IMG/VR virus record: IMGVR_UViG_3300032167_007519
Source of the DNA: a virus
Taxonomy: Duplodnaviria > Heunggongvirae > Uroviricota > Caudoviricetes
Direction: 5' to 3' (one strand)
DNA length: 35,580 nt
Notes under the pieces: model-generated
Database searches by the model: none
The model's input: only the letters and a program-made list of their open reading frames with translations
What the model was told of the DNA's origin: nothing
Part shown: positions 6,848 to 34,061 of the stretch, piece after piece
Layout of the letters: each line of letters begins with the position of its first letter
How positions within the stretch are numbered: position 1 is the first letter of the stretch
Made by a program: the position numbers and the translations under genes

Positions 6848-6877
6848 TATTAGTCACTTTTTGGTTTAATCTGTCGG
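6848..6877 (-). promoter_or_regulatory. Conserved upstream motif copy A (CCGA-CAGA-TTAAACCA-AAAAG-TGACTAATA)
   Basis: One of four intergenic copies; about 60 nt upstream of the first Tad-like gene. Confidence 0.65.
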
Positions 6878-6920
6878 ATTTAGCGTAATTGCCTTCTTTT
6901 ATATGCGGACTAATATAAAT

Positions 6921-6961
6921 AAAATCCAGAAAAATCCACCCCCTAAAATTGAGAGTGGATT
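6921..6961 (-). terminator. Intrinsic terminator after virD4
   Basis: - strand AATCCACTCTC-aatttta-GGGGGTGGATT stem (11 bp, two G-U pairs) followed by TTTCTGGATTTT. Confidence 0.8.
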
Positions 6962-6968
6962 CTTCTTT

Positions 6969-9266
6969 TTAGTTATATGGATAACTATCGTAATCATAAT
7001 CGTCGTCTTCTTCAAAACCTTGGAATCCATATTCGGAATCTTCTGGACTAAATAATTCGACAATCTTTTCTGCAGACAATGGAATGATTTCTGGCCATCC
7101 GGAATCCATTAGTACTTCTTTTACTAATTTTGCTGGCGGAATGGTATATTTGTCTCTGTTGAATGGTATCTTGGTCTCATCTGATGTATATTTATATAAT
7201 GGATGAGTGGTATATGGATGCTTATTGTCAATTAACGGATTTTCTCCGGAAACAATAATAATTTCTTGGGTGTTCGGCAAAGTCTTTACTTCGTCGGCAG
7301 TCATTAAGTCTCTCTGCTTTACTTCAATACCATAGTCTGTTCCAGATTTTAAATTGGTTTGACTTGCTTTTTCCTGAGCATGGGCAATTGTTGCTTTACC
7401 TAAAGATTCAGAAACATATTTTGCAGTTTCATTATCTGCTACCTTTAGAACAAGGTTTACCGGACAGTTACCAAATACAGAGCCCCAGTCTTTGTCATAC
7501 ATGGATTTAATCTGGTTGATATCCTGTAAAATAACGTCACAACTACCGTTATAACCAGCTATAGTCGATAATACGGTTAAAAAGTTTGGGATTTTTCCGA
7601 CGTTGAAAAATTCGTCAATGATAAAACGATTGTGGAATGGGAACATGGTTCCGTGCATGTTCTCTACTTTCATGTGTGCTAAGTCTTTGACAAACTCTTT
7701 TGCTAAGTGTTCATTTGGTCTTGCACTGATTTGTACTCCGTTGGCATCTAAAATATCTATGTAATAAGTAGATGGGTCATTAGCGTTAAAGGTGTTCTTA
7801 TCATAAGCATGTTTTTGATAACGAACAGAAGACATCGCTTTTAATTCGTCTTCAACACGCTGTTCAAACGCTTCTTTTGTTTCTTTTTTCTTCGGTCTCC
7901 AGAAACGTATAAATTCACCATTCTCTAAATGAGCATATTTACAGCCATTTAATTTATTTCCTCTCTTATACATAGAGGTAAATAACTGAGAATACATCAT
8001 ATTTAATAAGAAGTTGAAGGTCTTATCATTTGGATTCATAATAAGGAAAATAGCATCCTTCTGCTCACCAAAACTGTTTAAATCAATATTATTCGAAGAG
8101 GTTAAGTCTCTAATACGGTCAATGGTAAACATATTTAAACGAGTTGTGGTATTCGCTACAATGGTTGCTGCTGTTGGCTGTAATGGGTTTCCTTTAATCT
8201 GGTCCCATGCAATACAACAGTATGGCATTGTATTTGGATGTTTCTCTTTTACTCTACAGAACATTTCATCCAAATAACTTCCTTCCAATGTCGCATTCTG
8301 TGGAACTTTACCTTCACGCTCCATCGCAAGTGCTAATAACAAGTTTACAGAGGCAAAACATGGTTTATAAAGCTTTCCACCAGTTACATAAGCATCTTCA
8401 AACTCTCCGCCTTCTCCATATTTCCATAACAAATAAATACAGGCTCTGAGCAAGGCAAGTGTGGATAAATCCCAGAATGGAGACTCTCCTCCACCTCCAC
8501 CACCTTCTTCTCCACCAAGTTTGGTAGCGTCCATTAACTGTTGCGCTAATGTAGCTACTTCTTCTTCACTGGTGATATATTTGAATGGATTGTATGTATT
8601 ACAACGTACTTTGTCAAAAATATCAAATACTCGTACTTTATAACCAAAAGCTTGTAATACCGGACCGACAGCTTCTAATAATTCACCTTTCGGGTCTGTC
8701 ACTACATAGTTACAGTTCATTTGTAAAATATTGGGTTTTACAAAGAATCTGGATTTACCAGAACGGGTTGCACCAAGAATAACCATGTTTAACGCCGTCT
8801 GATGATAATAAATTTCAGTACTGATACGAATATTTTTGGATAAAATCATATCTTTGTAGTGGTCTGGCTCTTTTGGATTTTCAGATAAGGAATATCTTGC
8901 ATTAAATTCTCTTATCTTTCCCCATTGAGCAGTACCTGCTTCAGTTGTAATATCATCTGTAATTCTGGTATAGCCTCGGACTGCTAAATAGGCCATAACT
9001 ACAGCTAACAAAAAGACAATAGTTAAAGATAAACTTTGTGGAGGTGCAAAGACTGTTTCCGTTAGTGGATGAGAACTTAACCATGCACTGAACTTATTAA
9101 AAGAACTATGTCGGTTAAAATAAACACTTAAAATATTGGAAACAAAATAAGTTGCAATCGCTGATACTACCATAACAACAACGACACTTTGTAAATATGC
9201 CCGCTGTTTTTGCTTTATGGTAGTATTCATTTTAAATTCTTTTCTTTGAGGTTTCTTTTTTGCCAT
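6969..9266 (-). CDS. virD4: VirD4/TraG-family type IV coupling protein
   Basis: Two N-terminal TMs, GTAQWG motif, Walker A VILGATRSGKSRFFVKPN, VTDPKGEL, Walker B IIDEF, acidic tail. Confidence 0.93.
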   Translation of the reverse strand: MAKKKPQRKEFKMNTTIKQKQRAYLQSVVVVMVVSAIATYFVSNILSVYFNRHSSFNKFSAWLSSHPLTETVFAPPQSLSLTIVFLLAVVMAYLAVRGYTRITDDITTEAGTAQWGKIREFNARYSLSENPKEPDHYKDMILSKNIRISTEIYYHQTALNMVILGATRSGKSRFFVKPNILQMNCNYVVTDPKGELLEAVGPVLQAFGYKVRVFDIFDKVRCNTYNPFKYITSEEEVATLAQQLMDATKLGGEEGGGGGGESPFWDLSTLALLRACIYLLWKYGEGGEFEDAYVTGGKLYKPCFASVNLLLALAMEREGKVPQNATLEGSYLDEMFCRVKEKHPNTMPYCCIAWDQIKGNPLQPTAATIVANTTTRLNMFTIDRIRDLTSSNNIDLNSFGEQKDAIFLIMNPNDKTFNFLLNMMYSQLFTSMYKRGNKLNGCKYAHLENGEFIRFWRPKKKETKEAFEQRVEDELKAMSSVRYQKHAYDKNTFNANDPSTYYIDILDANGVQISARPNEHLAKEFVKDLAHMKVENMHGTMFPFHNRFIIDEFFNVGKIPNFLTVLSTIAGYNGSCDVILQDINQIKSMYDKDWGSVFGNCPVNLVLKVADNETAKYVSESLGKATIAHAQEKASQTNLKSGTDYGIEVKQRDLMTADEVKTLPNTQEIIIVSGENPLIDNKHPYTTHPLYKYTSDETKIPFNRDKYTIPPAKLVKEVLMDSGWPEIIPLSAEKIVELFSPEDSEYGFQGFEEDDDYDYDSYPYN

Positions 9267-9277
9267 AAGTTTCTCCT

Positions 9278-10756
9278 TTATGGGGTGAGTTTTGGTCCTG
9301 CGACAGGGTTACTAAGCATTGGTCCTGCTTTTGCAGCGGCTTTGGCAGCTTTTATAGCAGCATAAGTGGTTACTGTACCAAAGACTGCTTTAAAGTCTCT
9401 TCTAAATTTCTCTCTTTCTGTAGGTTCAGAATGCTTATAATATTCTTGGACTTCTTTGATATTTTCATTTGCTAAAATCTTATCTAAGACATCCATTTTG
9501 AACTCATATTGTTCTTGTTTAGAAAGATAACGATAATTTGGCGTAGACATAATTGCAATTTTAATTTCTTGGTTGGCGTACTGAACCAAATTATTATGAG
9601 CTTGTTTAACGTCTTTTAATACAGAAATATTATTACGAATAGTCGTAAGAGCAGCGATTTCTTCTGGAGAATTAGAATTTCTAATTTTGTTATTTAGAGC
9701 AGTTAGCATTTCTTTAAGAGATTGATTATCTGTTGCCAAATAGCCAGCTCGTTGTGAATAAGAAACCGGAGTAGAGCTATCTTTTAAGTCAGATAACACT
9801 TTGGCATCTTCTAACAGATTCTCAATACGTTCAGCCTCTAATTGCCCTTTTGTCTTTCTTTGATAAGCTTCAAATTCAGAAGGAGTTTTCTGTTCACAGT
9901 TATAAACTTGTCCTAACTCTTTCTTTAATAAATGCTCTAAAGCTTCTTCTCGGCCATTTGCAAAATATTCTCTCGTATCAATAGAAGTTACAACTTCGTC
10001 TAAAAGACCATTCTTTGTGTGAACTTCTAAAATACCATCATGAGCTTTGACATAATTGGCAGTATTATCATACTCGTTGACAAAATAAGTTTCTTGTCCA
10101 GTTTTTAAAGCTTCTTTTAAATTATCTGCATTCATAGTTTCATGAATATTATTGATATACTTAATACGACCTTCATAACTATTTTCTCTGCTGGATAACG
10201 CAACATCTAAGAAAATTGTTTCAATTGGACAGTCTACAGCAGTTTCGGAAAAGTAGATATGGTCATCTGCTTGACAACTTACAAAACCATCTTCATGGCT
10301 AAATGCCTTGTTTGCCAGAATTTCATGTGCCTGCGGAGAACTGAGAGGAATTGCAAAAACTTCATTGCCAAGTTTCTCTTGTGCTCGGAAAAATGATTCT
10401 GCTTGCTCAGTTCTTGTATATTTTGGACTGCTTTTTCTAATAGAGGCATCAATTTCTGCAAGTTTTGCTTCGTCTTCTACTCGAACAACAATCAATTGTT
10501 GATTATCTACGGTTTGAACTCCAATGTATGGGATATTTGAAGCTAATAAGGCTTTATGGTATTGTTCATGATAATCTCTATCTACTTGTAAGAATTTGAA
10601 ATCATTTCCATTGAAACCTTTTTTCTTCATTTCTTTCATGATGAGTTCCGGCATGTTTCCTTGTAAGGAGCCATGACTTCTTGTCATGGCCGCCTCGATT
10701 AAATGAAGTAATTCTTGGAGAACTTTCGCTTCTCTACTACCATCGGTATAATCCAT
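9278..10756 (-). CDS. Hypothetical conjugation protein (possibly PcfB-like N-terminal domain)
   Basis: 492-aa ORF with GGAGG RBS immediately upstream of virD4, the position usually held by PcfB/DUF3801; the family assignment is positional only. Confidence 0.5.
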   Translation of the reverse strand: MDYTDGSREAKVLQELLHLIEAAMTRSHGSLQGNMPELIMKEMKKKGFNGNDFKFLQVDRDYHEQYHKALLASNIPYIGVQTVDNQQLIVVRVEDEAKLAEIDASIRKSSPKYTRTEQAESFFRAQEKLGNEVFAIPLSSPQAHEILANKAFSHEDGFVSCQADDHIYFSETAVDCPIETIFLDVALSSRENSYEGRIKYINNIHETMNADNLKEALKTGQETYFVNEYDNTANYVKAHDGILEVHTKNGLLDEVVTSIDTREYFANGREEALEHLLKKELGQVYNCEQKTPSEFEAYQRKTKGQLEAERIENLLEDAKVLSDLKDSSTPVSYSQRAGYLATDNQSLKEMLTALNNKIRNSNSPEEIAALTTIRNNISVLKDVKQAHNNLVQYANQEIKIAIMSTPNYRYLSKQEQYEFKMDVLDKILANENIKEVQEYYKHSEPTEREKFRRDFKAVFGTVTTYAAIKAAKAAAKAGPMLSNPVAGPKLTP

Positions 10757-10772
10757 ATATTACCTCCTGTGG

Positions 10773-11477: not shown

Positions 11478-11586
11478 GGTTGAGTTTTCCTTTCGTAATA
11501 CCTCTTTAAGAGAATGTTACCTCCTTGTATCTATTCCCTTTAGAGAGGATTTATTTTTGTTGTTTATTGTTTCATATAGGAGAACA

Positions 11587-12033
11587 CTATAAAATAACTC
11601 CGTTTACAATATAGTGTTCCGTGCGGTCAGAATGGACTAATCGATATTTTCGATATTTCCCTTCTTTGTCAAAATGTTCGAAATCTTTTTGGTTTAAAAA
11701 AGCCATCGTATAGACTTTCCCATTGATTTTTCGATACATCCGTTTTGGTGGTTCACCGGGAATTAACTCAATTGGAACATATAATTTACCTGTATCAATT
11801 TTACTTAACCATTTCTGCTGTTTCGTATTTTGATATAGCTGTAAATATAGTCCGTTCGATTTTGTTGGTTTTTCTCCGGTTAATTGAATTGGCATTCCGT
11901 CTAAACAAGCTTTTTTAAAGCCTAATGTGGATAACTCCTCTGTGTTTATCGCTACATAGTCCTCAGAGGGTGGATTTGAAACTAACATGACGGTTTCGGT
12001 TGTTAGCATGGTTGGAAGATAATATGCAATCAC
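11587..12033 (-). CDS. Hypothetical protein
   Basis: GTG start after GGAAGGAG, overlapping the stop of the lipoprotein gene by 1 nt. Confidence 0.7.
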   Translation of the reverse strand: MIAYYLPTMLTTETVMLVSNPPSEDYVAINTEELSTLGFKKACLDGMPIQLTGEKPTKSNGLYLQLYQNTKQQKWLSKIDTGKLYVPIELIPGEPPKRMYRKINGKVYTMAFLNQKDFEHFDKEGKYRKYRLVHSDRTEHYIVNGVIL

Positions 12034-17688: not shown

Positions 17689-20133
17689 TTATGTCGTAAC
17701 TTCTTTTATTTGTTCTTTTGCTCTGGTAGAGAAAATGTCGTACAATAAGTTGTCTTCTGGGAATTCGTTCGTGAATGGAATTACCGTTCCGTTGTTGACA
17801 ATTAGTCCACTACCCGGCTTTGGTCTCTTAATATAAGATAATTCAGAAGGCTGAAGCTTTAATAATTCAGCTAAAAGCATCTGTTCTCTTTCCGCTTGCT
17901 TTAAAATGATTAAGTTGCTGGACTGAGTAAGCAGTAAAGCTGCCTTTGGATTTACTAATAAGTCGGATACGTTCTGGGTAATTGCAGTTGGAATTCCACT
18001 CCATTTACGTAAACGTCTCCAGAACTGCTCAAAGTAAGAAGCTGATGTTGGATTTGCAAAGAAACGATGTGCTTCATCTGCATAAATGTAAGTTACCCAA
18101 CCTCTTCTACGATTGCTGATGGTTCTGTTCCAGAAGTCATCCAAACATACCTTTAATGTAAGGTCGGTCATCTTATCACTTAATCCACTGATGTCATAAC
18201 AAATGATACGATTATCAATATTTACATTGGTGGTATGAGCAAAAATAGAATAAATACCAGTTACATATGGTTGCATGATATTTGCTAATCTTTGTGCAGT
18301 TGGTTCCGGCTGTCTTAATAGTAAGTCGAATAATTTCTGTAAGGTTGGACATACACTTCTGTCAATCGTAACAGGTTGTCCATCTACCTTTGGTAAAGAT
18401 GCTAAATGCTGAATATATGGTTCGTACATTAAGTTTACACATCTCTGTACGATACTTAATTGCTCTGCATCTAAGATTGCTCCTTTACCAATCATGGTCT
18501 CTAATAAACCACATAGGAAGTCAATCTTCATGGCAATCGGGTCTAAAGTAGAGTCAAGAGATTTATCAATATCTAAATCACATGCATTGATATGTACATT
18601 GAGTGCATCTGACTTTTGACCTGTGTTACTCTGTGGAGAAATTTTAATTACTTCACCACCAAATTTTCGTACCATGTCACAATATTCGCCTTCCGGGTCT
18701 AAGATAAATACAGACGCTTTTGGCTTATTTAAGATAACTGCTGCCATTTCCTGTTTCGTGGTAAATGACTTACCAGAACCGGAACTTCCTAAGATAACAG
18801 AGTTATAATTGTCATTCTTCATCTTGTTGATAACTACTACATTCTGATTTACACTGTTGATTCCATAGTAGAAACCACCTTCTTGGAACGTATTGATTTC
18901 ATCAAATGGCTGGAATAAAGAGATTGCTTCTGTAGTAATGTATCTACTGGTATGAGTCATGACCTGTCCAATCGGAAGCGCTGTGATAAATCCTCTCTCC
19001 TGACACATGTTATATGCCTGTAAGGAACAAATATATTTATCTGCAGTATTTTTAATCTTATCTTCTTGAAGTTTGATTTGTTTCTTATCTTCTGCAAAAT
19101 GAATGATAGATAAGTCAAATTCAAACATCTTTTGGTCACGTTCCTGAATGTCCGTTACCCATGCCTCTAACTCATCTGACATTGCCGCAACTTTTCGGGA
19201 AACTTTGCCACCGTTTTTATCTCCACTGGATTCAATTTCTGTCTGTAATCCTACATTTAAATCTCTTAGGATTTTAGATGCTTCTTTTGCTGTTTTTGGT
19301 CGGATGTAATAAGTTACTACTCCTTCAAATGGCAATGTGGATAATTCTGTATAAAACTTTGTAGAAAGCTTATTTGGAAGGTTTGTAATATAAAGACTTT
19401 GTCCCATACCATCATTGATGTAAAAATCTCTGGCTTTGAAAGAAAGATAAGACGGAGCAATAACATCTTTGAAATTTAAACCTTGTCTTGCAAGCTTTTT
19501 AAAGTCAAGTCTTGTGGTTGTTCCTTCATGTTCGAAGTTATAATTCTTTTCTGACTGGTTCATAATCTTCTGAAGAAGCTCTAAACGTTCTTCGGAAGAT
19601 AACATAGTGAGTTGAGTCTCTAATGTGGTCATTAAGTTTCTTAAAACACCTTCCACATTACTAAGAATTGCCTCTGCTTTTGCCATATCATCTTCTTCTA
19701 CACAGACGGTGATATATTTCTTTGTCTGAACTTCAGAAGCTGTCATTTTACTGCGAATAACTTCATTGTAAGCTTCACGGAATTCATTTAAATTATCTGC
19801 AAATCCATGAGAAGCTACTTCTAAGAAACGCTTTTCTGCATCTGTCTTTAAAGTAACTGCAGAAAATTTTAATAAAGCTTCTGTTGGTAAAGCGGATAAC
19901 ATCTGCTCTACTGTCTTCATAATAGCTTCTTGTTCGTTATCCGGTTTAATAGTAAAAGCAACATCTTCAAAGGTATAAGTCTTAGACCATATATGACCTT
20001 CTTCTAAAAACAATCCATCTCGATAAATGGCTTCAATTGGAATAGTATCCTGTGTCGTCTTTTTTACGGACGATTGTTTCTTCTTTACATCCTTTTCTTG
20101 CTTGGATGGTTTCTTTTTTGTATTACGATTCAT
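17689..20133 (-). CDS. virB4: VirB4-family conjugation ATPase
   Basis: Walker A ILGSSGSGKSF, ILDPEGEY, Walker B IYADEAH, RRLRKWSGIPTAITQN, KPGSGLI. Confidence 0.95.
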   Translation of the reverse strand: MNRNTKKKPSKQEKDVKKKQSSVKKTTQDTIPIEAIYRDGLFLEEGHIWSKTYTFEDVAFTIKPDNEQEAIMKTVEQMLSALPTEALLKFSAVTLKTDAEKRFLEVASHGFADNLNEFREAYNEVIRSKMTASEVQTKKYITVCVEEDDMAKAEAILSNVEGVLRNLMTTLETQLTMLSSEERLELLQKIMNQSEKNYNFEHEGTTTRLDFKKLARQGLNFKDVIAPSYLSFKARDFYINDGMGQSLYITNLPNKLSTKFYTELSTLPFEGVVTYYIRPKTAKEASKILRDLNVGLQTEIESSGDKNGGKVSRKVAAMSDELEAWVTDIQERDQKMFEFDLSIIHFAEDKKQIKLQEDKIKNTADKYICSLQAYNMCQERGFITALPIGQVMTHTSRYITTEAISLFQPFDEINTFQEGGFYYGINSVNQNVVVINKMKNDNYNSVILGSSGSGKSFTTKQEMAAVILNKPKASVFILDPEGEYCDMVRKFGGEVIKISPQSNTGQKSDALNVHINACDLDIDKSLDSTLDPIAMKIDFLCGLLETMIGKGAILDAEQLSIVQRCVNLMYEPYIQHLASLPKVDGQPVTIDRSVCPTLQKLFDLLLRQPEPTAQRLANIMQPYVTGIYSIFAHTTNVNIDNRIICYDISGLSDKMTDLTLKVCLDDFWNRTISNRRRGWVTYIYADEAHRFFANPTSASYFEQFWRRLRKWSGIPTAITQNVSDLLVNPKAALLLTQSSNLIILKQAEREQMLLAELLKLQPSELSYIKRPKPGSGLIVNNGTVIPFTNEFPEDNLLYDIFSTRAKEQIKEVTT

Positions 20134-20170: not shown

Positions 20171-20554
20171 TTATTTCTTTTTCTTGCAAACTGCTAATGG
20201 TTTATTTTTATTGTTTAACTTTAAAGGATTCTTTTTTCTGTTTAATCGTAAAGATGCTGGACTAATTCGATAACGTTTTGGTGGATTCATAAAGTTATCT
20301 TTCCACATCTCTGGCAAAATCTTTTCTAAAGGAAGTCCATAAATTGGTACAAACCCAATTGCAATTGGAATAATCGCCGGAATAGCACTGAGATAAATAC
20401 GTGCTTCTATTGATTGGTCTTTTAATAAAGAAATAGAAATACAAATCAATGCTCCTGCGACTACAACAGAAATTAACTGTCTGGACGTTAAGCCCCAGAA
20501 AAGTTTTGGCTTATAAGATTTTATATTTTTGGGTATATATCTACTTACCGCCAT
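20171..20554 (-). CDS. prgI: PrgI-family (VirB3-like) protein
   Basis: IPKNIKSYKPKLFWGLTSRQL N-terminus, two TMs, YGLPLEK, basic tail; directly upstream of virB4. Confidence 0.88.
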   Translation of the reverse strand: MAVSRYIPKNIKSYKPKLFWGLTSRQLISVVVAGALICISISLLKDQSIEARIYLSAIPAIIPIAIGFVPIYGLPLEKILPEMWKDNFMNPPKRYRISPASLRLNRKKNPLKLNNKNKPLAVCKKKK

Positions 20555-21662: not shown

Positions 21663-21705
21663 AATTACCTCCTACTTCTTTGTTTGTGATTACATAATGA
21701 GAAAT

Positions 21706-21727
21706 AGGGAGGAGTTTCCCCCTCCCC
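21706..21727 (-). terminator. GC-rich hairpin after the VirB2-like gene (weak terminator or mRNA stabiliser)
   Basis: GGGGAGGGG-GAAA-CTCCTCCCT; 9-bp stem with G-U pairs and GNRA loop on the - strand; only a weak U-tract (ATTTCTC). Confidence 0.6.
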
Positions 21728-21735
21728 TTATAGGC

Positions 21736-22179
21736 TTAGTCACCAATAGATTCGTTGTAAGTATCCCAGCTCTCACCCGGATACATCTGTTCAAATGCAA
21801 TTCTGCTAATGGTATTTCCAAGTAATGCACGGATTAAGATAAGACCTACACCAACAGCTAAAATAAGTAATGGACCTGTAATAGACTGTTCGTTAAATCT
21901 ATTGATAAATAACAGAATGATACCGACAATTACTAAAATAACACCTACTACTACGATGATAGGGAAGATGATATTTAATACAGCTTCGGTAGTCTTCCAT
22001 AATGCATAACCTGTTTCAGCTCCAGTAGAACCTGCAAATGCTGCTACACCAATACCGCTGGTAAGAAGAGATAACATATATACAAAGCTAATCATCTTCT
22101 TGTTTTTCATGACAACGTCGGATGCTTGGAGCATTACTGCGTTTAAACGCATAAATAACTGATTCATAAAATTTTTCAT
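21736..22179 (-). CDS. VirB2-like/Maff2-like small membrane protein (putative T4SS pilin)
   Basis: Long leader ending AAFA, then two hydrophobic helices separated by a short charged loop (NRFNEQS); first gene of the T4SS cluster. Confidence 0.65.
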   Translation of the reverse strand: MKNFMNQLFMRLNAVMLQASDVVMKNKKMISFVYMLSLLTSGIGVAAFAGSTGAETGYALWKTTEAVLNIIFPIIVVVGVILVIVGIILLFINRFNEQSITGPLLILAVGVGLILIRALLGNTISRIAFEQMYPGESWDTYNESIGD

Positions 22180-22384
22180 GGCTTTGAGTTTTCCTTTCTT
22201 TAATAAAAAAAAAATGATAGTTTGTTCCTGTAGAATAGGAAGAAATTCTCTATATCACTTTCTCGATTGATAAAAATTCATTATTCTTTTTTTATTTTTG
22301 GGGTGGATTTTGAAATATACGGAATGCTCTTTGGCTATTAGAGAAAAATACAACAGAATTTAAAAGGAAATTCTAATTGTGGAG

Positions 22385-22434
22385 AATAGAGAATGGAGAA
22401 CAAGAGAGGCTTTCTCTTGTCTCCAGCTCCTATT
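22385..22434. other. Long hairpin in the leader upstream of the T4SS cluster
   Basis: TGGAGA(A)CAAGAGA-ggctt-TCTCTTGTCTCCA with outer AATAG/CTATT pairing; second hairpin AGAATTT/AAATTCT at 22355-22374. Confidence 0.65.
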
Positions 22435-22489
22435 TGTCTACAGATTGCGCTTTTTGCGCTTTATTTTGTAAAAGGATATTAAATCCTGT

Positions 22490-23059
22490 TTACTCACCAA
22501 ATGGCTTGTATGGACCTAAATGGTCATCCATAAAATCTTCTAAGGTAGATTCGGCTTCTACAGCAGGGTCAGATAATGTCTGGCGAGCTTCGATTTCTTC
22601 AGTAATGTCTTTACCATGAGATACAACAGCGCATTTATCCTGACTATCTCTCTTACGATTCTGTGCTACAGTTACACTGACAGATTCTCTCTGTGCCGCA
22701 CTATGATATTCGTTTAGAGTTTCGTTGATAGCATCTCTGAATCCCTGAATACAGGTATCAAAATCTTTTGCGCCTTCTTCACCAAGTAATAATCTTGTCC
22801 AAATGATTAGCTCAGCTTCTTGTCTGAGTAACTCTCTTCTTCCGTCAATACCTCCACAATTTCGGAAGGATGGAAGCTTATCTGTGTAGTCCATTGCCTC
22901 TTTGATTTCAGGGGCAAAAAATTCGGAGACTTGCTGTAATAATACTTGCTGTTCATCAATACTGGAACAATATTCATTCCAATAACGAACTCTGTCTGCA
23001 AGAATGCGTAAATTCTCTTCGTTACGTTCTCCGGTTAATCCGCTACGTTTCATCGCCAT
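22490..23059 (-). CDS. Hypothetical helical protein upstream of the T4SS leader
   Basis: 189-aa ORF with GAAAGGAG RBS. Confidence 0.75.
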   Translation of the reverse strand: MAMKRSGLTGERNEENLRILADRVRYWNEYCSSIDEQQVLLQQVSEFFAPEIKEAMDYTDKLPSFRNCGGIDGRRELLRQEAELIIWTRLLLGEEGAKDFDTCIQGFRDAINETLNEYHSAAQRESVSVTVAQNRKRDSQDKCAVVSHGKDITEEIEARQTLSDPAVEAESTLEDFMDDHLGPYKPFGE

Positions 23060-23118
23060 TTCTTGGTACTCCTTTCTTGTTCTTACCTTTTGTCTTTGTT
23101 ATAACTTTAAACCCTTGT

Positions 23119-23907
23119 TTACCGACGAAAGTCTGTATTTGACTTTTTGGGATGCTCGGCAGCAATGGCATAAGCTTCTTTCGAAAGGTCTGCATATTCT
23201 GATACCGTAAGAAAATCGACATCTCGAATAATCACCATAGTGTTTCCGTCTCGAACACTAACCGTATGTATTAGGTTGGAATCTTCTCCATCCCAATAAA
23301 TTGGAAATTCATAAAGATAATTGTCATCTTTTACTGTAATCGAAATTTTAGCAGGCATTTCAACATCTATGTATTCTCCCGGATGTTCCATTACCTTCAC
23401 TGTCTTCATCCCAAAACGAATGTCGTTAATTACATCTGTTTTTGGATAATCTTCTTTGGAAAGGTAAGGTTCGTCTGTATAAATAGGTGTTGCAAATCCA
23501 AATAATGTTTCTGGTAAAGTAGTTAATAAAGCCTGACTTTCCGGACAACATTCCTGAATAACTTCTAAGAGCCCTTGAGATTGAATCTGCATACATGGAA
23601 TTTCTGCAGCGGTTCTCTTTCTCATTTCTGGAGCACATAATGCGAATATTTTAGAAGATAGCTCTGCTTGTGTTAAAGATTCTAATATTTGTAATAGACG
23701 TTCGGATATATAAGGTTTTGCAGCCTTTGAAAATAAACTGTCCGTCTCTCCTAAATACGGCTCACAATAGTACGACAAATCTGCAAAAAATTCCTGATAG
23801 GTTTTTCGATACCCTAAATCACAAAAGTCGCTATACAGTATCTTTAACAGGTCTTTTGTAAATACAGTATTTGTATAGTAAGGTTTTTTGAAAATAAAAT
23901 TATTCAT
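23119..23907 (-). CDS. Hypothetical protein
   Basis: 262-aa ORF; no RBS at normal spacing, so the start is uncertain (possibly leaderless). Confidence 0.65.
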   Translation of the reverse strand: MNNFIFKKPYYTNTVFTKDLLKILYSDFCDLGYRKTYQEFFADLSYYCEPYLGETDSLFSKAAKPYISERLLQILESLTQAELSSKIFALCAPEMRKRTAAEIPCMQIQSQGLLEVIQECCPESQALLTTLPETLFGFATPIYTDEPYLSKEDYPKTDVINDIRFGMKTVKVMEHPGEYIDVEMPAKISITVKDDNYLYEFPIYWDGEDSNLIHTVSVRDGNTMVIIRDVDFLTVSEYADLSKEAYAIAAEHPKKSNTDFRR

Positions 23908-23910
23908 ACT

Positions 23911-23940
23911 TATTAGCCAAAAAGTGGTTTAACTTATCGG
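23911..23940 (-). promoter_or_regulatory. Conserved upstream motif copy B (CCGA-TAAG-TTAAACCA-CTTTT-TGGCTAATA)
   Basis: Ends 3 nt before the ATG at 23907. Confidence 0.65.
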
Positions 23941-24027: not shown

Positions 24028-24057
24028 ACTAAACCTTAAACCAAAACTTAGCTAATG
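24028..24057 (+). promoter_or_regulatory. Conserved upstream motif copy D (ACTA-AACC-TTAAACCA-AAACT-TAGCTAATG)
   Basis: Divergent from copy B, about 50 nt upstream of the SNF2 start; CCGA box degenerate; TATGAT follows at 24058-24063. Confidence 0.55.
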
Positions 24058-24105: not shown

Positions 24106-26184
24106 ATGACTATAGGACCAACATATCGAATTTTAGTGGAACCTTATATGACGAAAAAAGGAACTCCTAAATTCGATTTCATGACAAAAGTAAATCACGA
24201 CATTCCTATGCCAAATCGTGCAATGACTGGTACCGTATTACAACTGTCTAACGCTATGGTTAAAATGAAACTCACTTCTGCAGATGGAAAAGAATGGACT
24301 GGATGGGTATTAAAAAAAGCTATCTTAAAAGAAGTGAATTTAACAGAAAATATTGAAGAAACGATTGAGGTTTCTATTCGAAAAGGAAAAACTTTTGTCC
24401 CTTTCGGGAATCAATTAGCTATTCGTGAACGGATTGCTTTTTTGATGAAACAATTTGGTCATAAAGAGATTGATACCGATGGTGTTTATTTTAGTGATGT
24501 CGACTTTGAAGACATTTGTAAAGAATTAAAAGAATTACAAATTCCTTATATAGAAAATGCTAACCATTATTTTGATTATTATTTGGTTCCGGAAGAACAA
24601 ACACTTCCTGTTGATTTGCCAGATATTTCTTCTATGACGAAAAGCAATTTATATCCTTATCAGAAAGAAGGAGTCCTTTATGGATTACAACATAAACATT
24701 TTTTACTGGGAGATGAAATGGGCCTTGGTAAAACATTACAGGCTATCTTAATTGCTCTCGGTAAAAAACAACAATTCGGATTTAAACATTGTTTGATTGT
24801 TTGTGGTGTAAACTCAGTAAAATATAACTGGGTATCGGAAATAAGAAAACATACCGAAGAGTCCGGTGTCGTACTTGCAGATGGTAATGCAGAAAAACTG
24901 AAACAATTAAATTTATTAGGAAGAAGAATTGTTCCGGATACAGAACTTGCTACTCTCTCTGCTTCCGAACGCAAAAAAGCAATGAAAGCAAATGAAATAA
25001 ATCAAGCTCATTTCTTAGTAGTAAATATTGAGTCTTTCCGTAATGACGCTTTCTCTACTAAAATTAAAGAATTGTGTCAGTCTGGTATGATTGGCGGAAT
25101 TATCTTTGACGAACTACATAAGTGTATTAACGTAGAAAGTAAACAATCTGTAGGTATCTTAAAAGCAAAAGCTCATTTTAAAGTAGGACTTACCGGAACA
25201 CCTCTTATCAATAAACCAATTGACTCCTATTTTACTTTCTTTTGGCTGGAAAAAACAAATAAAAATTATTGGCAGTGGGTAAATATATTCCAAAGAAAAG
25301 TTGACCAGTATACGACGGAACTTAGAAATTCTACTTTATTACAAAAGAATTTTGAACGGATTATGCTTCGTCGCAAAAAAGCAGATGTATTAGACCTTCC
25401 GGATAAAATCTATACTGAAGAATTAGTGGAAATGAATGATAGTCAGAAACGTCTCTATGAATTATTATATGATGATTTATTAGAAGGTTGTCCATTAAAC
25501 CCAGTGGTAAAATTACTTCGCTTTCGACAAATTACCGGAATTCCGGATTATGTTGCTTCTGTTATGGGACAACCAGAACTTATTAACTCAAGCCGTTCCG
25601 CAAAGTTAGAACGTTTGGCTGAACATATTGAAGAAATTGTTAACTCTGGACAAAAAGTAGTTGTCTTCTCTAATTGGACCGAAGTTTTAGACAGATTACC
25701 TGACTATGGCATTACAAACGCTCTTCGAATTGACCGTTCGGTTTCGGTAAAACGACGTCATGAAATTGAAGAGCTTTGGCAGTCTGAACCAGAAGGAGGT
25801 CCGATAGAACATCCTGTCATCGTTGGAACGATTGAAGCTATGGGTACAGGTCTTAATTTAAATTCTGCTACAAATGTCATCTTTATTGATGAACCTTGGA
25901 CTAATGCAAAAAAAGAACAGGCTGTCGATAGATGTCATCGTGTTGGTACAAAAGATACAGTCAATGTAATTACTCTTATGTGTCATGGCACAAAAGATGA
26001 ACAGGTACATGATGTAGTCCTTGGTAAGAAAAATATGTCAGACCTTTTAGTTGATTGTGGCGGAATCGAAACATTAACTGATGAAGAAATAGAAGAACAA
26101 ATTCTGTTAGAAGAACTTCTTGCTATGCCGGAAGAAGAATTAGAAGTTGCCAACTTGTCAACAGATGTTTATCAACAACGGTAA
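24106..26184 (+). CDS. SNF2-family (SF2) helicase/translocase
   Basis: LYPYQKEG, LLGDEMGLGKT, DELH, LTGTPLIN, MLRRKK, KVVVFS, GTGLNL, QAVDRCHRVG. Start moved to ATG 24106, which follows AGAAAGGATGG. Confidence 0.92.
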   Translation: MTIGPTYRILVEPYMTKKGTPKFDFMTKVNHDIPMPNRAMTGTVLQLSNAMVKMKLTSADGKEWTGWVLKKAILKEVNLTENIEETIEVSIRKGKTFVPFGNQLAIRERIAFLMKQFGHKEIDTDGVYFSDVDFEDICKELKELQIPYIENANHYFDYYLVPEEQTLPVDLPDISSMTKSNLYPYQKEGVLYGLQHKHFLLGDEMGLGKTLQAILIALGKKQQFGFKHCLIVCGVNSVKYNWVSEIRKHTEESGVVLADGNAEKLKQLNLLGRRIVPDTELATLSASERKKAMKANEINQAHFLVVNIESFRNDAFSTKIKELCQSGMIGGIIFDELHKCINVESKQSVGILKAKAHFKVGLTGTPLINKPIDSYFTFFWLEKTNKNYWQWVNIFQRKVDQYTTELRNSTLLQKNFERIMLRRKKADVLDLPDKIYTEELVEMNDSQKRLYELLYDDLLEGCPLNPVVKLLRFRQITGIPDYVASVMGQPELINSSRSAKLERLAEHIEEIVNSGQKVVVFSNWTEVLDRLPDYGITNALRIDRSVSVKRRHEIEELWQSEPEGGPIEHPVIVGTIEAMGTGLNLNSATNVIFIDEPWTNAKKEQAVDRCHRVGTKDTVNVITLMCHGTKDEQVHDVVLGKKNMSDLLVDCGGIETLTDEEIEEQILLEELLAMPEEELEVANLSTDVYQQR

Positions 26185-26291: not shown

Positions 26292-26320
26292 TTGGCGATT
26301 TTGGTATTAGTTGTTATAAT
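26292..26320 (+). promoter_or_regulatory. Sigma-A-type promoter
   Basis: TTGGCG-17 nt-TATAAT with extended -10 TGn. Confidence 0.75.
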
Positions 26321-26389: not shown

Positions 26390-26614
26390 ATGACAAACTA
26401 TCAACATCTATTTCATATTGGTCAAAAAGTATATTATAAGAATGATGATTTTGATGCGATTCAAGAATATATCCCTTGTGTCGTAAAAGAGATTTTTGAT
26501 GACCATATGATACTTACAGATTTAGAAACTGAGACTGATTTATTCATACAAGAGGGCTTTAATCTAGGTAATGTTTACCCAGAATATAATCTTTCTCCTA
26601 CGTTTTCTCGTTAA
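26390..26614 (+). CDS. Small hypothetical protein (74 aa)
   Basis: ATG 26390 follows GAGG; has its own promoter and terminator; beta-rich SH3-like pattern (FHIGQKVYY...CVVKEI). Confidence 0.7.
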   Translation: MTNYQHLFHIGQKVYYKNDDFDAIQEYIPCVVKEIFDDHMILTDLETETDLFIQEGFNLGNVYPEYNLSPTFSR

Positions 26615-28007: not shown

Positions 28008-28047
28008 ACAAACAATTCCTCTCTCTCTACTGCTTACAAAAGATTTG

Positions 28048-28365: not shown

Positions 28366-28405
28366 GGAAATATCCTCGTGTTTGTAAATACCAGTTCTTT
28401 GTAGA

Positions 28406-28627: not shown

Positions 28628-28670
28628 GGAATTCTCCTGTGGTTTGTAAATGCTATTTTAAGAAGAAAAA

Positions 28671-29510: not shown

Positions 29511-29511
29511 A

Positions 29512-30660
29512 CTAGAATTCTATGCTCCATTCTCCATTATTTAATCTGGTGTGTAATTCTTGATAATCATCTTCTACAACTAACATTGCATCGTGAGAAG
29601 AATTATATTCATCTAACCAGTCTCCAGACTTTAAGTGTAACATACCGAAAAAGGCATTTTCAGTAAAGGAAATCCAAAGAGTTGCATCATTTGTTAATTC
29701 CAATTCCGGAACAGCTTCTGTACCAACAATCGGATAAACCTTTGAAATAGAAAGTAAATCACCTTGTTCGATAGAAGTGCCTGTTGTCATAATCGTTGCG
29801 TTGAATACACCATTATCAAACTGACCTTTAATTAACAAGTTATATTTACTAACATTGGCAGTTAATAACGGCGCTTCTAAACTGGACATAGAAGTATAAT
29901 ACTGCATACTTCCATAGTCAGAACGATATTCCGCATTTACCATCACGGGAACAATACCATCTTGAATTACCTGCAGTGGGGAAACAGTAATCTTAATTTT
30001 ATCCGTATTGTCTCCTCTGAGAAGCTCAACGTCCTGTGTCTGGTACATAACCTTATTTGCCGGAATTACCCAACTACGGTCAGTTACCTTGACAGCAATT
30101 GGTTCTTTTGGGTTTTCCATTACAGGTTCTGGTTCTGGAGTTGTAGATACAGGGGTTGGAGGAGTGATAGGCTCTACTGATTCGACTGGATTGATTGGCT
30201 CAACTACTGGCTCTAATACAGGCTCAAAGACTGGGACAGAAGAACTTTCGGATTCTGTAACATCTGAAGTCTCTTTAAAAGAATCCTCCATATTTTCTAC
30301 AGAAGAAGCGGCTTCTTCAACATAAGTTCTTGTTCCTTCTGTAAAGAATGGCTCTACAGATTCTAATTCTTCTTCTGGAATTTCTTTCGGAGTCCATTCT
30401 GGAGTAACAGCTTCCTGCTCATGGACAATAGGTTCGGTAGTAATATCTTTTGGACTTGTCTCTGGGGGATTCGATGTCGCAGGTAAGTCTACGATAGTTA
30501 CTCCAAGTTTTGCATTCATTTCTCGAAGAACCATCGCCTGAGCCGTGCCTAAGACTCCTCGATACTTTGTTACAAACTCTGCAGGAAGACTGAGAACTAG
30601 TTCGTCTAAATGTTTAGAACAATTGCAAGCATCCTGCAGTAAGATTAGTAATGAATTCAT
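29512..30660 (-). CDS. Hypothetical protein with acidic Pro/Glu-rich disordered linker
   Basis: Helical N-terminus, PEPEPV/PVVEP-rich centre, beta-rich C-terminal domain; AAGGAGG RBS. Confidence 0.75.
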   Translation of the reverse strand: MNSLLILLQDACNCSKHLDELVLSLPAEFVTKYRGVLGTAQAMVLREMNAKLGVTIVDLPATSNPPETSPKDITTEPIVHEQEAVTPEWTPKEIPEEELESVEPFFTEGTRTYVEEAASSVENMEDSFKETSDVTESESSSVPVFEPVLEPVVEPINPVESVEPITPPTPVSTTPEPEPVMENPKEPIAVKVTDRSWVIPANKVMYQTQDVELLRGDNTDKIKITVSPLQVIQDGIVPVMVNAEYRSDYGSMQYYTSMSSLEAPLLTANVSKYNLLIKGQFDNGVFNATIMTTGTSIEQGDLLSISKVYPIVGTEAVPELELTNDATLWISFTENAFFGMLHLKSGDWLDEYNSSHDAMLVVEDDYQELHTRLNNGEWSIEF

Positions 30661-30685
30661 TACTGTGCCTCCTTGTTGTCATAAT

Positions 30686-31267
30686 TTATTCTAAGGTTTC
30701 CTTAGATTCGCTGAAAACAGTGTCGTTATCTGCTATCCTTGGTAACACATAGTCATATTCTTTTGTGGGACCGGAAAAGCGAAATACCCATTCCTCTTCG
30801 TTATATCCTTGGTCTTCACATAAAACTCTATCTGTCATATCTATACACTTTTTCCCATCTGTGGTAGTATATAAATAATATTCATGATTGAGTTCTAATT
30901 TACGTTCTCTTAATTTACGTTTTGCGGTAGAAGTAGGCTTTCTTGTTTGTTTTACTCGAAAGGCTATCTGTGTTTCTACAATTTCCATAGGAATATAGGT
31001 ATATGTATTTAAAAAATATAAGAGAAATACTATTGTGAAAATTGTAGCTAAGACATACATCTGTGCCGATTTAAATAATGGAGAAAAGGCTACCCACCAA
31101 GAGGCTATCATATATAATGCGGCACTAATAAGAGTACCTAAGTTTCCTTTTTTCTCTAAATCTCTAAAATATAGATAATCGGTTTCTTTACAGAGCTTGT
31201 CATAAGCCTGTTGCCATTCTTCTGTTTTTTTAAACGTCATATATCGGAGAAATCGAAATAAAAACAT
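30686..31267 (-). CDS. Membrane protein (two TM helices)
   Basis: LISAALYMIASWWVAF and YVLATIFTIVFLLYFL; AAAGGAG RBS. Confidence 0.75.
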   Translation of the reverse strand: MFLFRFLRYMTFKKTEEWQQAYDKLCKETDYLYFRDLEKKGNLGTLISAALYMIASWWVAFSPLFKSAQMYVLATIFTIVFLLYFLNTYTYIPMEIVETQIAFRVKQTRKPTSTAKRKLRERKLELNHEYYLYTTTDGKKCIDMTDRVLCEDQGYNEEEWVFRFSGPTKEYDYVLPRIADNDTVFSESKETLE

Positions 31268-31282
31268 ATAGATAAAACTCCT

Positions 31283-31858
31283 TTATAACATAGATTCAAA
31301 TAAATCAAAAATATCGTCATCGTCATCATCAGCATCGTCATTCGTATCCGCTGTATAATTTTCTGTATAAGTTGGTTCTATTGGAGGTGGAACAATAGGT
31401 TCCGGCTTTTGTACTGGAACAGAAGATTCTTTGACGGAGGAAGATTTTGTGGTACTTGCTGATGGGGTAATGTAAGTCGGAGCAGTATTTTCTTGATAAA
31501 TGGATGCTTCTGTTTGGTAAATAACGTGCCCATACATGTAGCGTAAAATTCCTTTACAATACATAGCAAACATTCCATCCGGAATTGTATTGATAAAATC
31601 AGTTACTAACTGTATCATTTCTTGACGTTTTTTACTTCTAGTTTTTCTTACCATTTGCTCTTGAAAAGAGATAAAGATATTTAGACGCTTATCCTGTTCC
31701 ATAATAGTAACTGGATGGAGTGGAATATTTACTTTTTCTCCTTTTGCATAGGCGTATAGGGCTGCCATCACTAAGACAGCAACCCTTTCGTCCTGTTGAA
31801 GGAAAAAACTAATTAAATCTGCATCTGCTTTTCTGGATAAATAAAACTGCTTCGTCAT
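31283..31858 (-). CDS. ParR/Alp7R-like partition adaptor
   Basis: Immediately downstream of parM; RHH-like N-terminus (KQFYLS-helix-helix), low-complexity linker, acidic C-terminal tail DDADDDDDDIFDLFESML. Confidence 0.6.
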   Translation of the reverse strand: MTKQFYLSRKADADLISFFLQQDERVAVLVMAALYAYAKGEKVNIPLHPVTIMEQDKRLNIFISFQEQMVRKTRSKKRQEMIQLVTDFINTIPDGMFAMYCKGILRYMYGHVIYQTEASIYQENTAPTYITPSASTTKSSSVKESSVPVQKPEPIVPPPIEPTYTENYTADTNDDADDDDDDIFDLFESML

Positions 31859-31864
31859 TTTGGA

Positions 31865-33043
31865 TTACTTTTCCCCTTTTTCTCTACTAAGCTTATTGTA
31901 AGCTCTCATGTAATAGCCAAGAACATTGGAAAATGCAAATGGTAATGTCTCATCATTTTCATTACCTGCGATAACTTCTACACCCATGTCTTTGAAAATT
32001 GCTCGAATGTCTTCCATACGAGATTCTCCGGTGCCACCAGTAACAATTAACATGTCAACATCTACAAAATCATCATAGAGTCTCATAAGACGGTCAATTG
32101 CTTTCTGATTTAGTTTCTTATTGTACTTATCTAAGATAACTCCGATTGGAATTTCTACCGGGCGTTTCTGCTGACGGTCAAAAGCTTTAATCACGCCATC
32201 TTCTAAGTATCTCTGCAACTCAAATGCCTGAATTGGTGCCGGAAGCTGTGGATTTACTTCATCTAAAACGTGGTCAAATACAGATTTCATCGCTGTATCG
32301 GAAAACGTTTTATGAATTCCTTTTGCACGGCTTCGGATTTCAAAATCATCTTCTGTACCAAAACCGACATCATGAATTACTACATTCTTCTTTAATAAAT
32401 CTTTACGATTTGGAAGAATTTCACCTTTGGAATTGTGCATAACTCCAAATAAAGTACCCTGTGGCTGTTCAATGACAAATACATCTGCAGGAGTAAAAGT
32501 GTATCTCTTTGGTTCATTGTTTCCTACCTGTAATGTAATGTCATATTTTTTCTTTAAGGTTTTAATTAGCCATTCTGTGTCTCTAGCAGCATACTCACAT
32601 GGTAAACCTGTCTGAATGTAAACATCTGTTTTGTCATAATTGTCCGGTAAACCAAGAGCAATGCCTACAGCAGCTAATACCTGATAGGTTTCTGTCTGGA
32701 ACCAATAACGGTCATACAAAACTTCATCATTCATCTGCTTAATATCAGCAACTTTCATCTGCCGATAAGCAAGGTCACCTACTAAATACATGTTGCCAGT
32801 AATATGGTCGGTTAAAATGATGTCAGTATCCTTTAACTTATCTAAGTTCTGGAACTCTCGTACCTGCTTAATAATGGATGGGATACAATAAGCTTTGTCT
32901 CCGCCAAGACCTTTGACAGAACTGTAGCCACCGTCAAACCCAATAATGGTTTTCGCCTTGTGCTGGTTATTTCCTAAAATCTTAGGAAGTTTCTTTTCCA
33001 TAATAAAAGCTCGTGTCTTATACTCGTTCGCTACTCCCTGCAT
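31865..33043 (-). CDS. parM: ParM/StbA-family actin-like partition ATPase
   Basis: Phosphate-1 IGFDGGYSSVK, connect EQPQG, phosphate-2 IHDVGFGTED, adenosine IVTGGTG, C-terminal SNVLGYY. Confidence 0.9.
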   Translation of the reverse strand: MQGVANEYKTRAFIMEKKLPKILGNNQHKAKTIIGFDGGYSSVKGLGGDKAYCIPSIIKQVREFQNLDKLKDTDIILTDHITGNMYLVGDLAYRQMKVADIKQMNDEVLYDRYWFQTETYQVLAAVGIALGLPDNYDKTDVYIQTGLPCEYAARDTEWLIKTLKKKYDITLQVGNNEPKRYTFTPADVFVIEQPQGTLFGVMHNSKGEILPNRKDLLKKNVVIHDVGFGTEDDFEIRSRAKGIHKTFSDTAMKSVFDHVLDEVNPQLPAPIQAFELQRYLEDGVIKAFDRQQKRPVEIPIGVILDKYNKKLNQKAIDRLMRLYDDFVDVDMLIVTGGTGESRMEDIRAIFKDMGVEVIAGNENDETLPFAFSNVLGYYMRAYNKLSREKGEK

Positions 33044-33543
33044 AGTGCATACTCTCCTTTTGTTGTTGTTTTTAAATTTTTATATCCTTTATAGCAGCCA
33101 TATTTGCCACTAATAAAGTTCGTATAAATGCTATCAAGTCCTAAACTCCAAACCTCACTGGAACCAACAAATTCACAAAAAGCATGACATTCAATTACTC
33201 CATTTTGGTCTGTAACAAACCAAATATCATACCAATCGGTTGCAGCATAAATAAATGCGGGTTCGACAGTAAAAACAAAACGTTGACCGTCAGATAGCTG
33301 AGCGATTGTCGTGAGTGGGGAACGAAGATTCTCTTTTGTTGTGTCTAGAGCAGGAACGACAGAATCTGTTCGATATAAAACAGAATCGTCATCATCATCC
33401 GGTAGTAACCAAAGTTTTTCTATTTCTTCCGCTACACGGTTTTTTAATTCCGGAGAGGAAAAAATAAAAATATTGTTTTTGGTTAATTTATGTAAGGAAA
33501 AATTATGATATTCCGGATGCTGAATTATTAGGTCTGTAATCAT
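33031..33543 (-). CDS. Hypothetical protein
   Basis: 170-aa ORF with GGAG RBS, overlapping the parM start. Confidence 0.7.
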   Translation of the reverse strand: MITDLIIQHPEYHNFSLHKLTKNNIFIFSSPELKNRVAEEIEKLWLLPDDDDDSVLYRTDSVVPALDTTKENLRSPLTTIAQLSDGQRFVFTVEPAFIYAATDWYDIWFVTDQNGVIECHAFCEFVGSSEVWSLGLDSIYTNFISGKYGCYKGYKNLKTTTKGEYALCRE

Positions 33544-33564
33544 TATTTTATCTCCAATAATTAT

Positions 33565-33921
33565 TTATTTTCGGAGACCAAGTGCAGTTAATGGGTCCTC
33601 TACATGATATGTTCTTGTATGTGCAGTGACTGGTTCAAAAATCACTTCAAAATCACCAGAAAATCTGATTTTAATGCAATTATTATCTGTATATTCAGCA
33701 GAGATTGCTGTCTTTAATGTAATTTCTTCCGGGAGGTCTCCATCCCTGAATTTTCTAAACCGCATGGTCTGTCCATAAGTAAGATTTCGTGGGTCGTTTG
33801 TAGCATCACATTCTGCAATACTTCCTACACAACGTTCGTATAATCTACTTCCAAAACGATATTTTTCTCCTGCTAATGGGAAGGTTGTGTGAAGAATATT
33901 CTTAATCAAATAATTAGCCAT
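33565..33921 (-). CDS. Hypothetical protein, first gene of the parM operon
   Basis: 118-aa ORF with AGAAAGGA RBS. Confidence 0.7.
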   Translation of the reverse strand: MANYLIKNILHTTFPLAGEKYRFGSRLYERCVGSIAECDATNDPRNLTYGQTMRFRKFRDGDLPEEITLKTAISAEYTDNNCIKIRFSGDFEVIFEPVTAHTRTYHVEDPLTALGLRK

Positions 33922-34031
33922 AAGTCTCAGGTCCTTTCTGTCTCAAAACTGGGTCAATTGCTACGTATGAGGTATAAACAATTGAAGTTGTTAAAATGAT
34001 AAAAATAAATATAGTTTTCGGTATCCTCACT

Positions 34032-34061
34032 TATTAGCTATCATTTGGTTTAAGTTTTCGG
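34032..34061 (-). promoter_or_regulatory. Conserved upstream motif copy C (CCGA-AAAC-TTAAACCA-AATGA-TAGCTAATA)
   Basis: About 110 nt upstream of the ATG at 33921. Confidence 0.65.

Follow-up and report, generated by a model that had tools for sequence, protein, structure and literature searches.

The virus record IMGVR_UViG_3300032167_007519 (IMG/VR; Caudoviricetes), a stretch of 35,580 nucleotides (nt) that we refer to at its full length as the window, carries four copies of one motif in front of genes for pilus, transfer, helicase, and partition functions, which raises the question of what the motif does and what reads it. An earlier note on this DNA had taken the copies for a dedicated regulon. 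We find the motif to be genuine and directional; it occurs element-wide, is conserved, and stands at a constant distance from a leaderless ATG that is itself conserved. It is very probably an element-wide, non-canonical promoter. To the more specific reading that it is the private promoter of a conjugative element, read via an element-encoded initiation factor for which a 189-amino-acid (aa) protein is the candidate, we give a probability of about 0.7. The carrier appears to be a large conjugative element of at least 165 kb, found in cattle-gut and faecal metagenomes, with a type IV secretion system (T4SS), a relaxase, a Tad-like pilus, ParM-like partition, tRNAs, and tmRNA.

Four directional copies of a motif in the window

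We described the motif as the 29-base pattern CCGA-N4-TTAAACCA-N5-TRRCTAAT and searched the window for it with up to three mismatches, estimating chance from 100 dinucleotide-preserving shuffles of the same sequence. The search returned four matches, compared to an average of 0.02 in the shuffles, none of which reached four. All four copies are intergenic and have the orientation of the next gene, as the earlier note had reported along with their identical spacing. Copy A (6849..6877, minus strand, inferred start 6844) is the putative promoter of a Tad-like operon with a SAF/CpaB-like gene first; copy B (23912..23940, minus strand, inferred start 23907) that of an operon comprising a 262-aa gene, the 189-aa sigma-like gene, and the T4SS genes; copy C (24028..24056, plus strand, inferred start 24061), in which the CCGA box is degenerate (two mismatches), that of an SNF2 helicase gene; and copy D (34033..34061, minus strand, inferred start 34028), the closest to consensus of the four, that of an operon encoding 118-aa, 170-aa, ParM-like, bactofilin, and HD proteins. 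These downstream units are as the earlier note had described them; it had the sites and their ends right and placed the start coordinates one base too low.

The word TTAAACC occurs 13 times in the window and is followed by the CTAAT box at the required spacing in only four cases, which are the four motif copies; the other nine lack the second box, in agreement with what had been noted before. When the window was scanned with a position weight matrix built from 18 aligned copies (those in the window together with those described below), only four sites scored above 8 bits (51, 33, 32.5, and 32). The motif family is thus sharply bimodal, without weak members in the window. The motif is also strictly directional, with 18 of 18 aligned copies co-oriented with the downstream gene. 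The consensus box over these copies is TAGCTAAT, and the ten copies of this element give the consensus a...t.CCGA.AacTTAAACCAAAt..TAGCTAATA..Tg.

Two of the copies stand directly behind the end of another transcript. The intrinsic terminator of a VirD4 gene (6966-6928) lies immediately upstream of copy A and another terminator (34150-34119) lies upstream of copy D, so that transcription has to restart at both places.

The motif recurs across the element and is conserved in its relatives

We reached the flanks of the window via identical proteins on other metagenome contigs of the same element, and found six further copies just outside the window. Five are on the left (in contig L008; the left flank comprises L004 and L008) within 14 kb, of which one ends 25 nt before the 5' end of tRNA-Leu and others precede a tRNA and small-RNA island. 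The sixth, on the right (L021), heads an operon encoding a 182-aa protein, a DHH protein, and a Mob_Pre relaxase. A copy ending 25 nt before a tRNA gene argues that the signal works on transcription and not on translation, and the copies before tRNA genes, small-RNA genes, and the relaxase operon argue for a general promoter of the element rather than a transfer regulon. The idea of a regulon dedicated to the four pilus, transfer, partition, and helicase units of the window is therefore not sustained.

Relatives of the element were found through two proteins. SNF2 homologues 51-57% identical to the one in the window led to two contigs (L017 and L019) that are syntenic with it across the T4SS, SNF2, HD, bactofilin, and ParM genes, with proteins 30-75% identical, and the 189-aa protein provided the link to a third relative (L075). 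At the sites orthologous to copies B, C, and D, the core (A)AC-TTAAAC-N7-TRRCTAAT is kept and the flanking intergenic DNA has diverged; at site D, where three elements could be aligned, the motif is the only long conserved block. The earlier note had staked its proposal on conservation in homologous elements, and the core is indeed kept in all three. Superimposed on the conserved core are differences between lineages. The upstream box is CCGA in this element and CACA or ACAA in all relatives, and position -19 (numbered from the transcription start proposed below) is C in 10 of 10 copies here and A in 8 of 8 copies of the relatives. A conserved core with lineage-specific switches is the pattern expected if a promoter and its reader co-evolve.

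In L075 (560-790), a 177-aa open reading frame (ORF) takes the place of SNF2 as the gene divergent from operon B, and a motif copy still faces this ORF (TTAAAC-N7-CATCTAAT), which suggests that the promoter pair has been kept and its cargo changed. More distant SNF2 homologues (33-36% identity; L023 and L024) turned out to belong to unrelated phages without the motif and were set aside.

In the collections searched, the motif is otherwise essentially absent. The exact motif had no match in the viral contig collection, and four and three single matches, which is chance level, in 185,579 species genomes and in Joint Genome Institute (JGI) metagenome contigs, respectively. No species genome or metagenome contig in these sets had many copies, and the contigs with an exact match had no protein similarity to the window. 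The relaxed core AACTTAAAC-N7-TRRCTAAT gave 49 single matches among viral contigs, again at chance level, and a megablast search with 6.5 kb against plasmid and phage collections gave no match. The chance-level matches indicate a signal private to a small lineage.

These results bear on whether the motif might be read by the host, either by an alternative sigma factor of a Bacillota host or by a housekeeping factor of unusual specificity to which the promoters of the element have adapted. Nearly all units, including the tRNAs, use the motif, as they would use a housekeeping signal. However, a host signal is not what the counts in species genomes and metagenome contigs suggest, and the difference between CCGA and CACA in closely syntenic elements is better explained by private, co-evolving readers. 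In addition, the window contains one convincing canonical promoter, the only one we saw (26292-26320, plus strand; TTGGCG-17-TATAAT with TG ahead of the -10), an extended -10 sigma-A promoter whose presence implies that canonical promoters are not foreign to this DNA. We consider a host reader distinctly unlikely.

A probable leaderless gene suggests a transcription start site

The first gene behind copy B encodes a 262-aa protein (P0001; 23119..23907, minus strand) with syntenic orthologues, 31-32% identical, in L017, L019, and L075. In all four elements, its ATG lies exactly 4 nt past the TRRCTAAT box, with four different spacers (AAGT, AGTT, GGGT, and CAGT) and with no Shine-Dalgarno sequence before the ATG, and the four proteins can be aligned at their N-termini from Met1 onward (MN.F.F). 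That the distance is constant and the spacer sequence is not, in front of proteins that have diverged to 31-32% identity, points to a leaderless mRNA starting at the A of the ATG.

From this gene we infer that transcription starts at the fifth base after the box. Counted in this way, T at -1 followed by a purine at +1 is seen in the majority of the 18 copies, and the motif would be laid out as TTACCGA at -36 to -30 (CCGA at -33 to -30, replaced by the CACA type in relatives), a semi-conserved AAC at -28 to -26, an invariant TTAAAC at -25 to -20, and TRRCTAAT at -12 to -5.

The same anchor bears on whether the motif is a promoter at all, or a signal at the level of RNA or DNA structure, such as a site for processing, translation, partition, nucleoid organization, or a replication protein. 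The TAGCTA within the box is a 6-bp palindrome and faintly resembles ParB/KorB-type sites, but copies A and B and several relatives lack it, and no Rfam family matches the motif. Nor does the placement of the motif fit: it stands before tRNA, small-RNA, and mRNA genes alike, follows terminators, contains no Shine-Dalgarno sequence, and keeps a fixed 4 nt to a conserved ATG that has none. A signal of this kind has, in our estimate, very little probability.

The proposed start also affects the annotation of the SNF2 gene. The listed start of its ORF (ATG at 24055) falls inside copy C, upstream of the start of transcription proposed there. The true start is likely the ATG at 24106, which follows AGAAAGGA; translated from there, SNF2 has 692 aa, and its L017 orthologue has 691 aa.

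The motif differs from the promoter and operator types compared

Scans with sigma-70 consensus sequences gave no site at any of the four copies, and across the region the number of sites was not enriched (53 found, 55.6 expected). A sigma-A promoter would have a TTGACA-like and a TATAAT-like hexamer separated by 16-18 bp, the latter with A as its second base and T as its sixth, and we did not find this arrangement; on the proposed start the box reads T-12 R-11 R-10 C-9 T-8 A-7, without T at -7. The signature of sigma-54 (GG and GC 10 bp apart, TGGCA-N6/7-TTGC) is likewise absent from the 18 aligned copies, and the likeness is limited to box positions that resemble a -24/-12 layout. On both sigma factors, the earlier note had come to the same view. 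No conserved, orientation-independent dyad of the kind used by dimeric regulators (KorB, LexA, or Rex type) was found. The imperfect dyad that had been proposed for the core is best in copy B alone, where the half-sites match at 5 of 7 positions (TGGCTAA), and falls to 4 of 7 for the consensus; it is not conserved, and the motif is directional. The consensus here also has no boxes in common with AWAYATGY-TATACT-GAATATGTCCACATAAAAWA, the motif of the conjugative megaplasmid pMP7017. Other parses were tried and dropped: sigma-B (GTTTAA, on the opposite strand), sigma-D (CCGATAA), T7/T3-like, and archaeal TATA-like parses with a B recognition element do not fit all of the copies, and neither does an extracytoplasmic function (ECF) sigma parse (AAC-N16-C), of which AAC at -28 to -26 followed by N16-CTAA remains a loose resemblance.

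A different arrangement would be an ordinary promoter for host sigma-A, or a weak one with a -10 box only, overlaid by the site of an element-encoded activator or repressor. Plasmid-wide regulons based on operators or activators are well known (AcaCD/SetCD, KorA/KorB logic), and the 34-bp motif of pMP7017, which overlaps the -10, was read by its authors as a transcription factor site (PMC10832533). In our element, T and R at -12 and -11 correspond in most copies to the TA that opens TATAAT, and an Xre-type helix-turn-helix gene lies about 3 kb to the left of the window. Yet the T at -7, an essential base, is missing from the box, as is the A at -11 in several copies (TGG, TGA), and there is no TTGACA-like hexamer 16-18 nt upstream. 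Moreover, unlike the operators of dimeric regulators, the motif is asymmetric and in every case points the way the genes do, and its conservation runs continuously from about -36 to -5, with no separate upstream box. We regard an overlaid sigma-A promoter as unlikely. The analogy to AcaCD/SetCD drawn in the earlier note is correspondingly weak, since the motif spans this whole range including the -10-like box itself.

A candidate reader with a predicted sigma region 2 fold

If the motif is a private promoter, its layout would be unreadable for host sigma-A, and host core RNA polymerase would probably be redirected by an initiation factor encoded on the element. The best candidate for such a factor is the 189-aa protein (22490..23059, minus strand), which has an N-terminal helical domain (residues ~9-126) predicted to resemble sigma region 2 and no recognizable region 4. 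In each of the four elements for which context is available, its gene follows the leaderless gene as the second one behind copy B, a position that would create positive feedback on the gene itself and on the T4SS operon.

The initial lead came from the ESM Atlas, where the protein lies near clusters of sigma-70 region 2. The family is small, with seven members found by HMMER among 1.84 billion representatives. In an AlphaFold2 model based on eight sequences, residues 14-125 form an N-terminal domain of five helices, with a predicted local distance difference test (pLDDT) score of 78-89 over most of its length. When this model was compared by VIA-align to 48,161 PDB representatives, about 30 of the top 33 chains were sigma domain 2, with Z from 9.5 to 5.7. 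The best match was Staphylococcus aureus SigB (Z 9.5, root-mean-square deviation 2.6 Å over 91 residues), and others included pro-sigma-K, SigI6, SigW, AlgU, ShbA, sigma-E region 2, sigma-A domain 2, and the AR9 holoenzyme. The fourth match was PDB 7d7d_F, a chain of the T4 late-transcription complex. Foldseek against the PDB and Swiss-Prot models, with weak E-values, listed sigma-E region 2, ShbA, sigma-H, SigD, and sigma-28. An hhalign comparison to 18 ECF sigma factors reached a probability of 11% (P 0.0028) in the register of regions 2.2-2.4, pairing RRELLRQEAELIIW with region 2.2 and DFDTCIQGFRDAI with regions 2.3/2.4. As an internal control, the model of the neighboring 262-aa protein gave a heterogeneous list of matches with Z of at most 5.5.

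According to these models, the 189-aa protein matches region 2 of the sigma-70 family at the level of fold only, and because the match is confined to the fold we do not file it as a member of that family. Residues 127-189 are modeled with low confidence (pLDDT 42-61) as short strands and helices and were barely covered by the fold searches. This C-terminal part may be a small repeatable module, given that a protein of 2271 aa (P0129) matches residues 110-170 in eight separate stretches. Three further homologues (P0130, P0131, and P0128) are on contigs of 1-2 kb without promoter context.

We see roughly even odds that the 189-aa protein is an initiation factor consisting of region 2 only, which would recognize TRRCTAAT and thereby act, by feedback, on the operon that encodes it. 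For the upstream boxes there may be a second reader, possibly the leaderless 262-aa product of the same operon; that the fast-evolving P0001 reads TTAAAC and the lineage-specific upstream box is a guess. A word search found no homologues of P0001 and the ESM Atlas no lead, and its structure model is poor, with matches too heterogeneous for a fold assignment. The earlier note had suggested a single element-encoded activator or alternative sigma factor; an element-encoded reader is plausible, and the candidate for it has a predicted sigma region 2 fold.

Several points weigh against the private promoter and its proposed reader. The start sites are deduced, and the sole RNA run, a bovine gut metatranscriptome, consists of assembled contigs from a relative 90-95% identical, which cover parts of 21690-23306 and scattered pieces and none of which reaches a motif copy. 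The sigma-like assignment comes from predicted structures with a mean pLDDT of 67.5, and Z scores of this size are reachable by helical bundles by chance. Searches of Pfam (E ≤1), PHROGs, and the PDB (sequence and profile) gave no sequence-level sigma match for the 189-aa protein, and neither a region-4-like domain nor another DNA-binding partner was found. A gene behind its own promoter also needs a primer for its first expression, and we found none. Finally, about 75 kb of the element was covered, as DNA or as gene tables, and the rest may contain a conventional sigma or polymerase gene. Within that range, the window proteins had no sigma or polymerase match in Pfam or PHROGs, the small ORFs (Pfam at E ≤1) had no regulator match either, and the precomputed Pfam annotation of the flanking genes contains no sigma or polymerase. 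A complex prediction of the N-terminal domain with residues 200-360 of Bacillus subtilis beta-prime gave no answer and speaks neither for nor against binding.

Genes and other features around the motif copies

The genes behind the copies are those of a conjugative element. On the left, a VirD4-type coupling protein gene (6969-9266) is followed on the far side of copy A by the Tad-like block, which has the SAF/CpaB-like gene at its head and includes a T2SSE-type ATPase. The T4SS behind copy B is of the Gram-positive type, with PrgI (20171-20554) and a VirB4-like protein (17689-20133). The operon behind copy D encodes an actin-like protein of the ParM type, a bactofilin, and an HD protein; for its 170-aa protein, the ESM Atlas gave nothing usable. 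Gene tables to the right of the window list a block of 470-, 153-, 115-, and 437-aa proteins, the Mob_Pre relaxase, and the DHH protein, and further right a UvrD-like helicase (1000 aa) and then a 1018-aa protein without Pfam match.

Within operon B, the sigma-like gene is separated from a 147-aa gene with four predicted transmembrane segments by a gap of 310 nt (22180-22489), compared to 30-47 nt in the relatives. The gap contains a hairpin with a 12-bp stem, and an RNA-library contig of the 90-95% relative spans 21690-22479. The canonical promoter at 26292-26320 precedes an acidic 74-aa ORF (26390-26614), between SNF2 and the end of the convergent operon. We considered the product of this ORF as the reader of the motif and rejected it, as it is not conserved in the relatives.

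Adjoining copy D is a perfect 20-bp palindrome, TATTGCCAACGTTGGCAATA (34067..34086), at about -40 to -58. It is possibly an operator specific to this operon or a partition site, and is not present at the matching spot in L017 or L019. Logan DNA contigs from several faecal metagenomes have breaks or false joints at motif copies (24031-24043 and 34022-34066); the repeated promoter probably fragments assemblies of the element.

Relation to known systems

The closest working precedent is SigN (ZpdN) of the B. subtilis plasmid pBS32, a plasmid-encoded, autoactivating sigma factor with a plasmid-restricted regulon, whose promoters are not found on the chromosome (PMC6751061). SigN is recognizable as a sigma-70-family protein, weakly ECF-like, and its promoters have -35 and -10 boxes (TTTACGTTT ... 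GATATAA) with the usual spacing; SigN controls a part of pBS32 and is primed by LexA-repressed sigma-A promoters (PMC6751061). The two cases would share a large Bacillota element, a private promoter, and autoactivation. They differ in the sequence and layout of the promoter, in the coverage of nearly all units here, in a candidate with a region-2-like domain only, and in that we found no priming promoter.

In architecture, the 189-aa candidate is closest to T4 gp55. That protein of ~185 aa has a sigma region-2-like domain only and guides the core polymerase of the host to a -10-like box of 8 bp, TATAAATA. Conserved upstream boxes are missing from T4 late promoters, which need gp33 and the sliding clamp, accessory proteins that replace region 4. 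In contrast, the motif here has further boxes at -25 to -20 and -33 to -30 and a conjugative setting, and the two proteins have no detectable sequence similarity.

Promoter motifs private to a megaplasmid have a precedent in pMP7017, a conjugative megaplasmid of Bifidobacterium breve, on which the 34-bp motif is present in ~19 copies at promoters and is absent from chromosomes (PMC10832533). That plasmid also carries tRNAs and tmRNA, and its motif has a canonical -10 (TATACT), extends downstream, and covers ~24% of coding capacity (PMC10832533). The logic is alike; the pMP7017 host is actinobacterial, however, and the motif here is unrelated in sequence, has no sigma-70 -10, is conserved upstream of the start, and covers a broader set of units.

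AcaCD of IncA/C plasmids and SetCD of SXT/R391 integrative and conjugative elements use FlhDC-like activator boxes upstream of sigma-70 promoters, for transfer genes only. As in those systems, one element-encoded factor and a shared motif would serve many transfer-related operons; unlike in those systems, the motif would be the core promoter itself, and it also stands before tRNA and small-RNA genes. Element-borne sigma factors seem to be common in Bacillota, as eight sigma genes of unknown specificity on Clostridioides difficile conjugative transposons indicate (PMC7438776).

An element-private promoter with its own sigma-like factor would, by these analogies, be of a kind already known. New here are the conservation in relatives with lineage switches, the anchoring of the start site by a leaderless gene, and a candidate reader that is sigma-like in predicted structure. 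A bolder version, which we put forward tentatively and hold to be rather doubtful, is that gut Bacillota conjugative megaplasmids have a previously unrecognized gp55-like sigma factor, consisting of region 2 only and missed by sequence profiles, that directs host RNA polymerase, perhaps with the 262-aa protein as partner, to a tripartite -33/-22/-9 promoter. Nearly all of the element, with its tRNAs, tmRNA, and T4SS, would then be transcribed under a code of its own, in which upstream box and factor change together from lineage to lineage.

Implications

If the private promoter is real, nearly every gene of the element would be shielded from host sigma-A, and those for conjugation, pilus, partition, helicase, tRNAs, and tmRNA would be switched jointly by one private factor. 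This would create a single control point for the transfer of a widespread mobile element of the cattle gut, and would be an addition to the small set of plasmid-borne sigma systems such as SigN of pBS32. The motif is usable as a precise marker of transcription units and leaderless genes in such elements, and for the correction of start codons, as for SNF2. The lineage variants (CCGA and CACA) across the four elements amount to a natural specificity-swap experiment. Together, the promoter layout and a sigma-like protein that is invisible to sequence comparison would widen what counts as a bacterial initiation factor.

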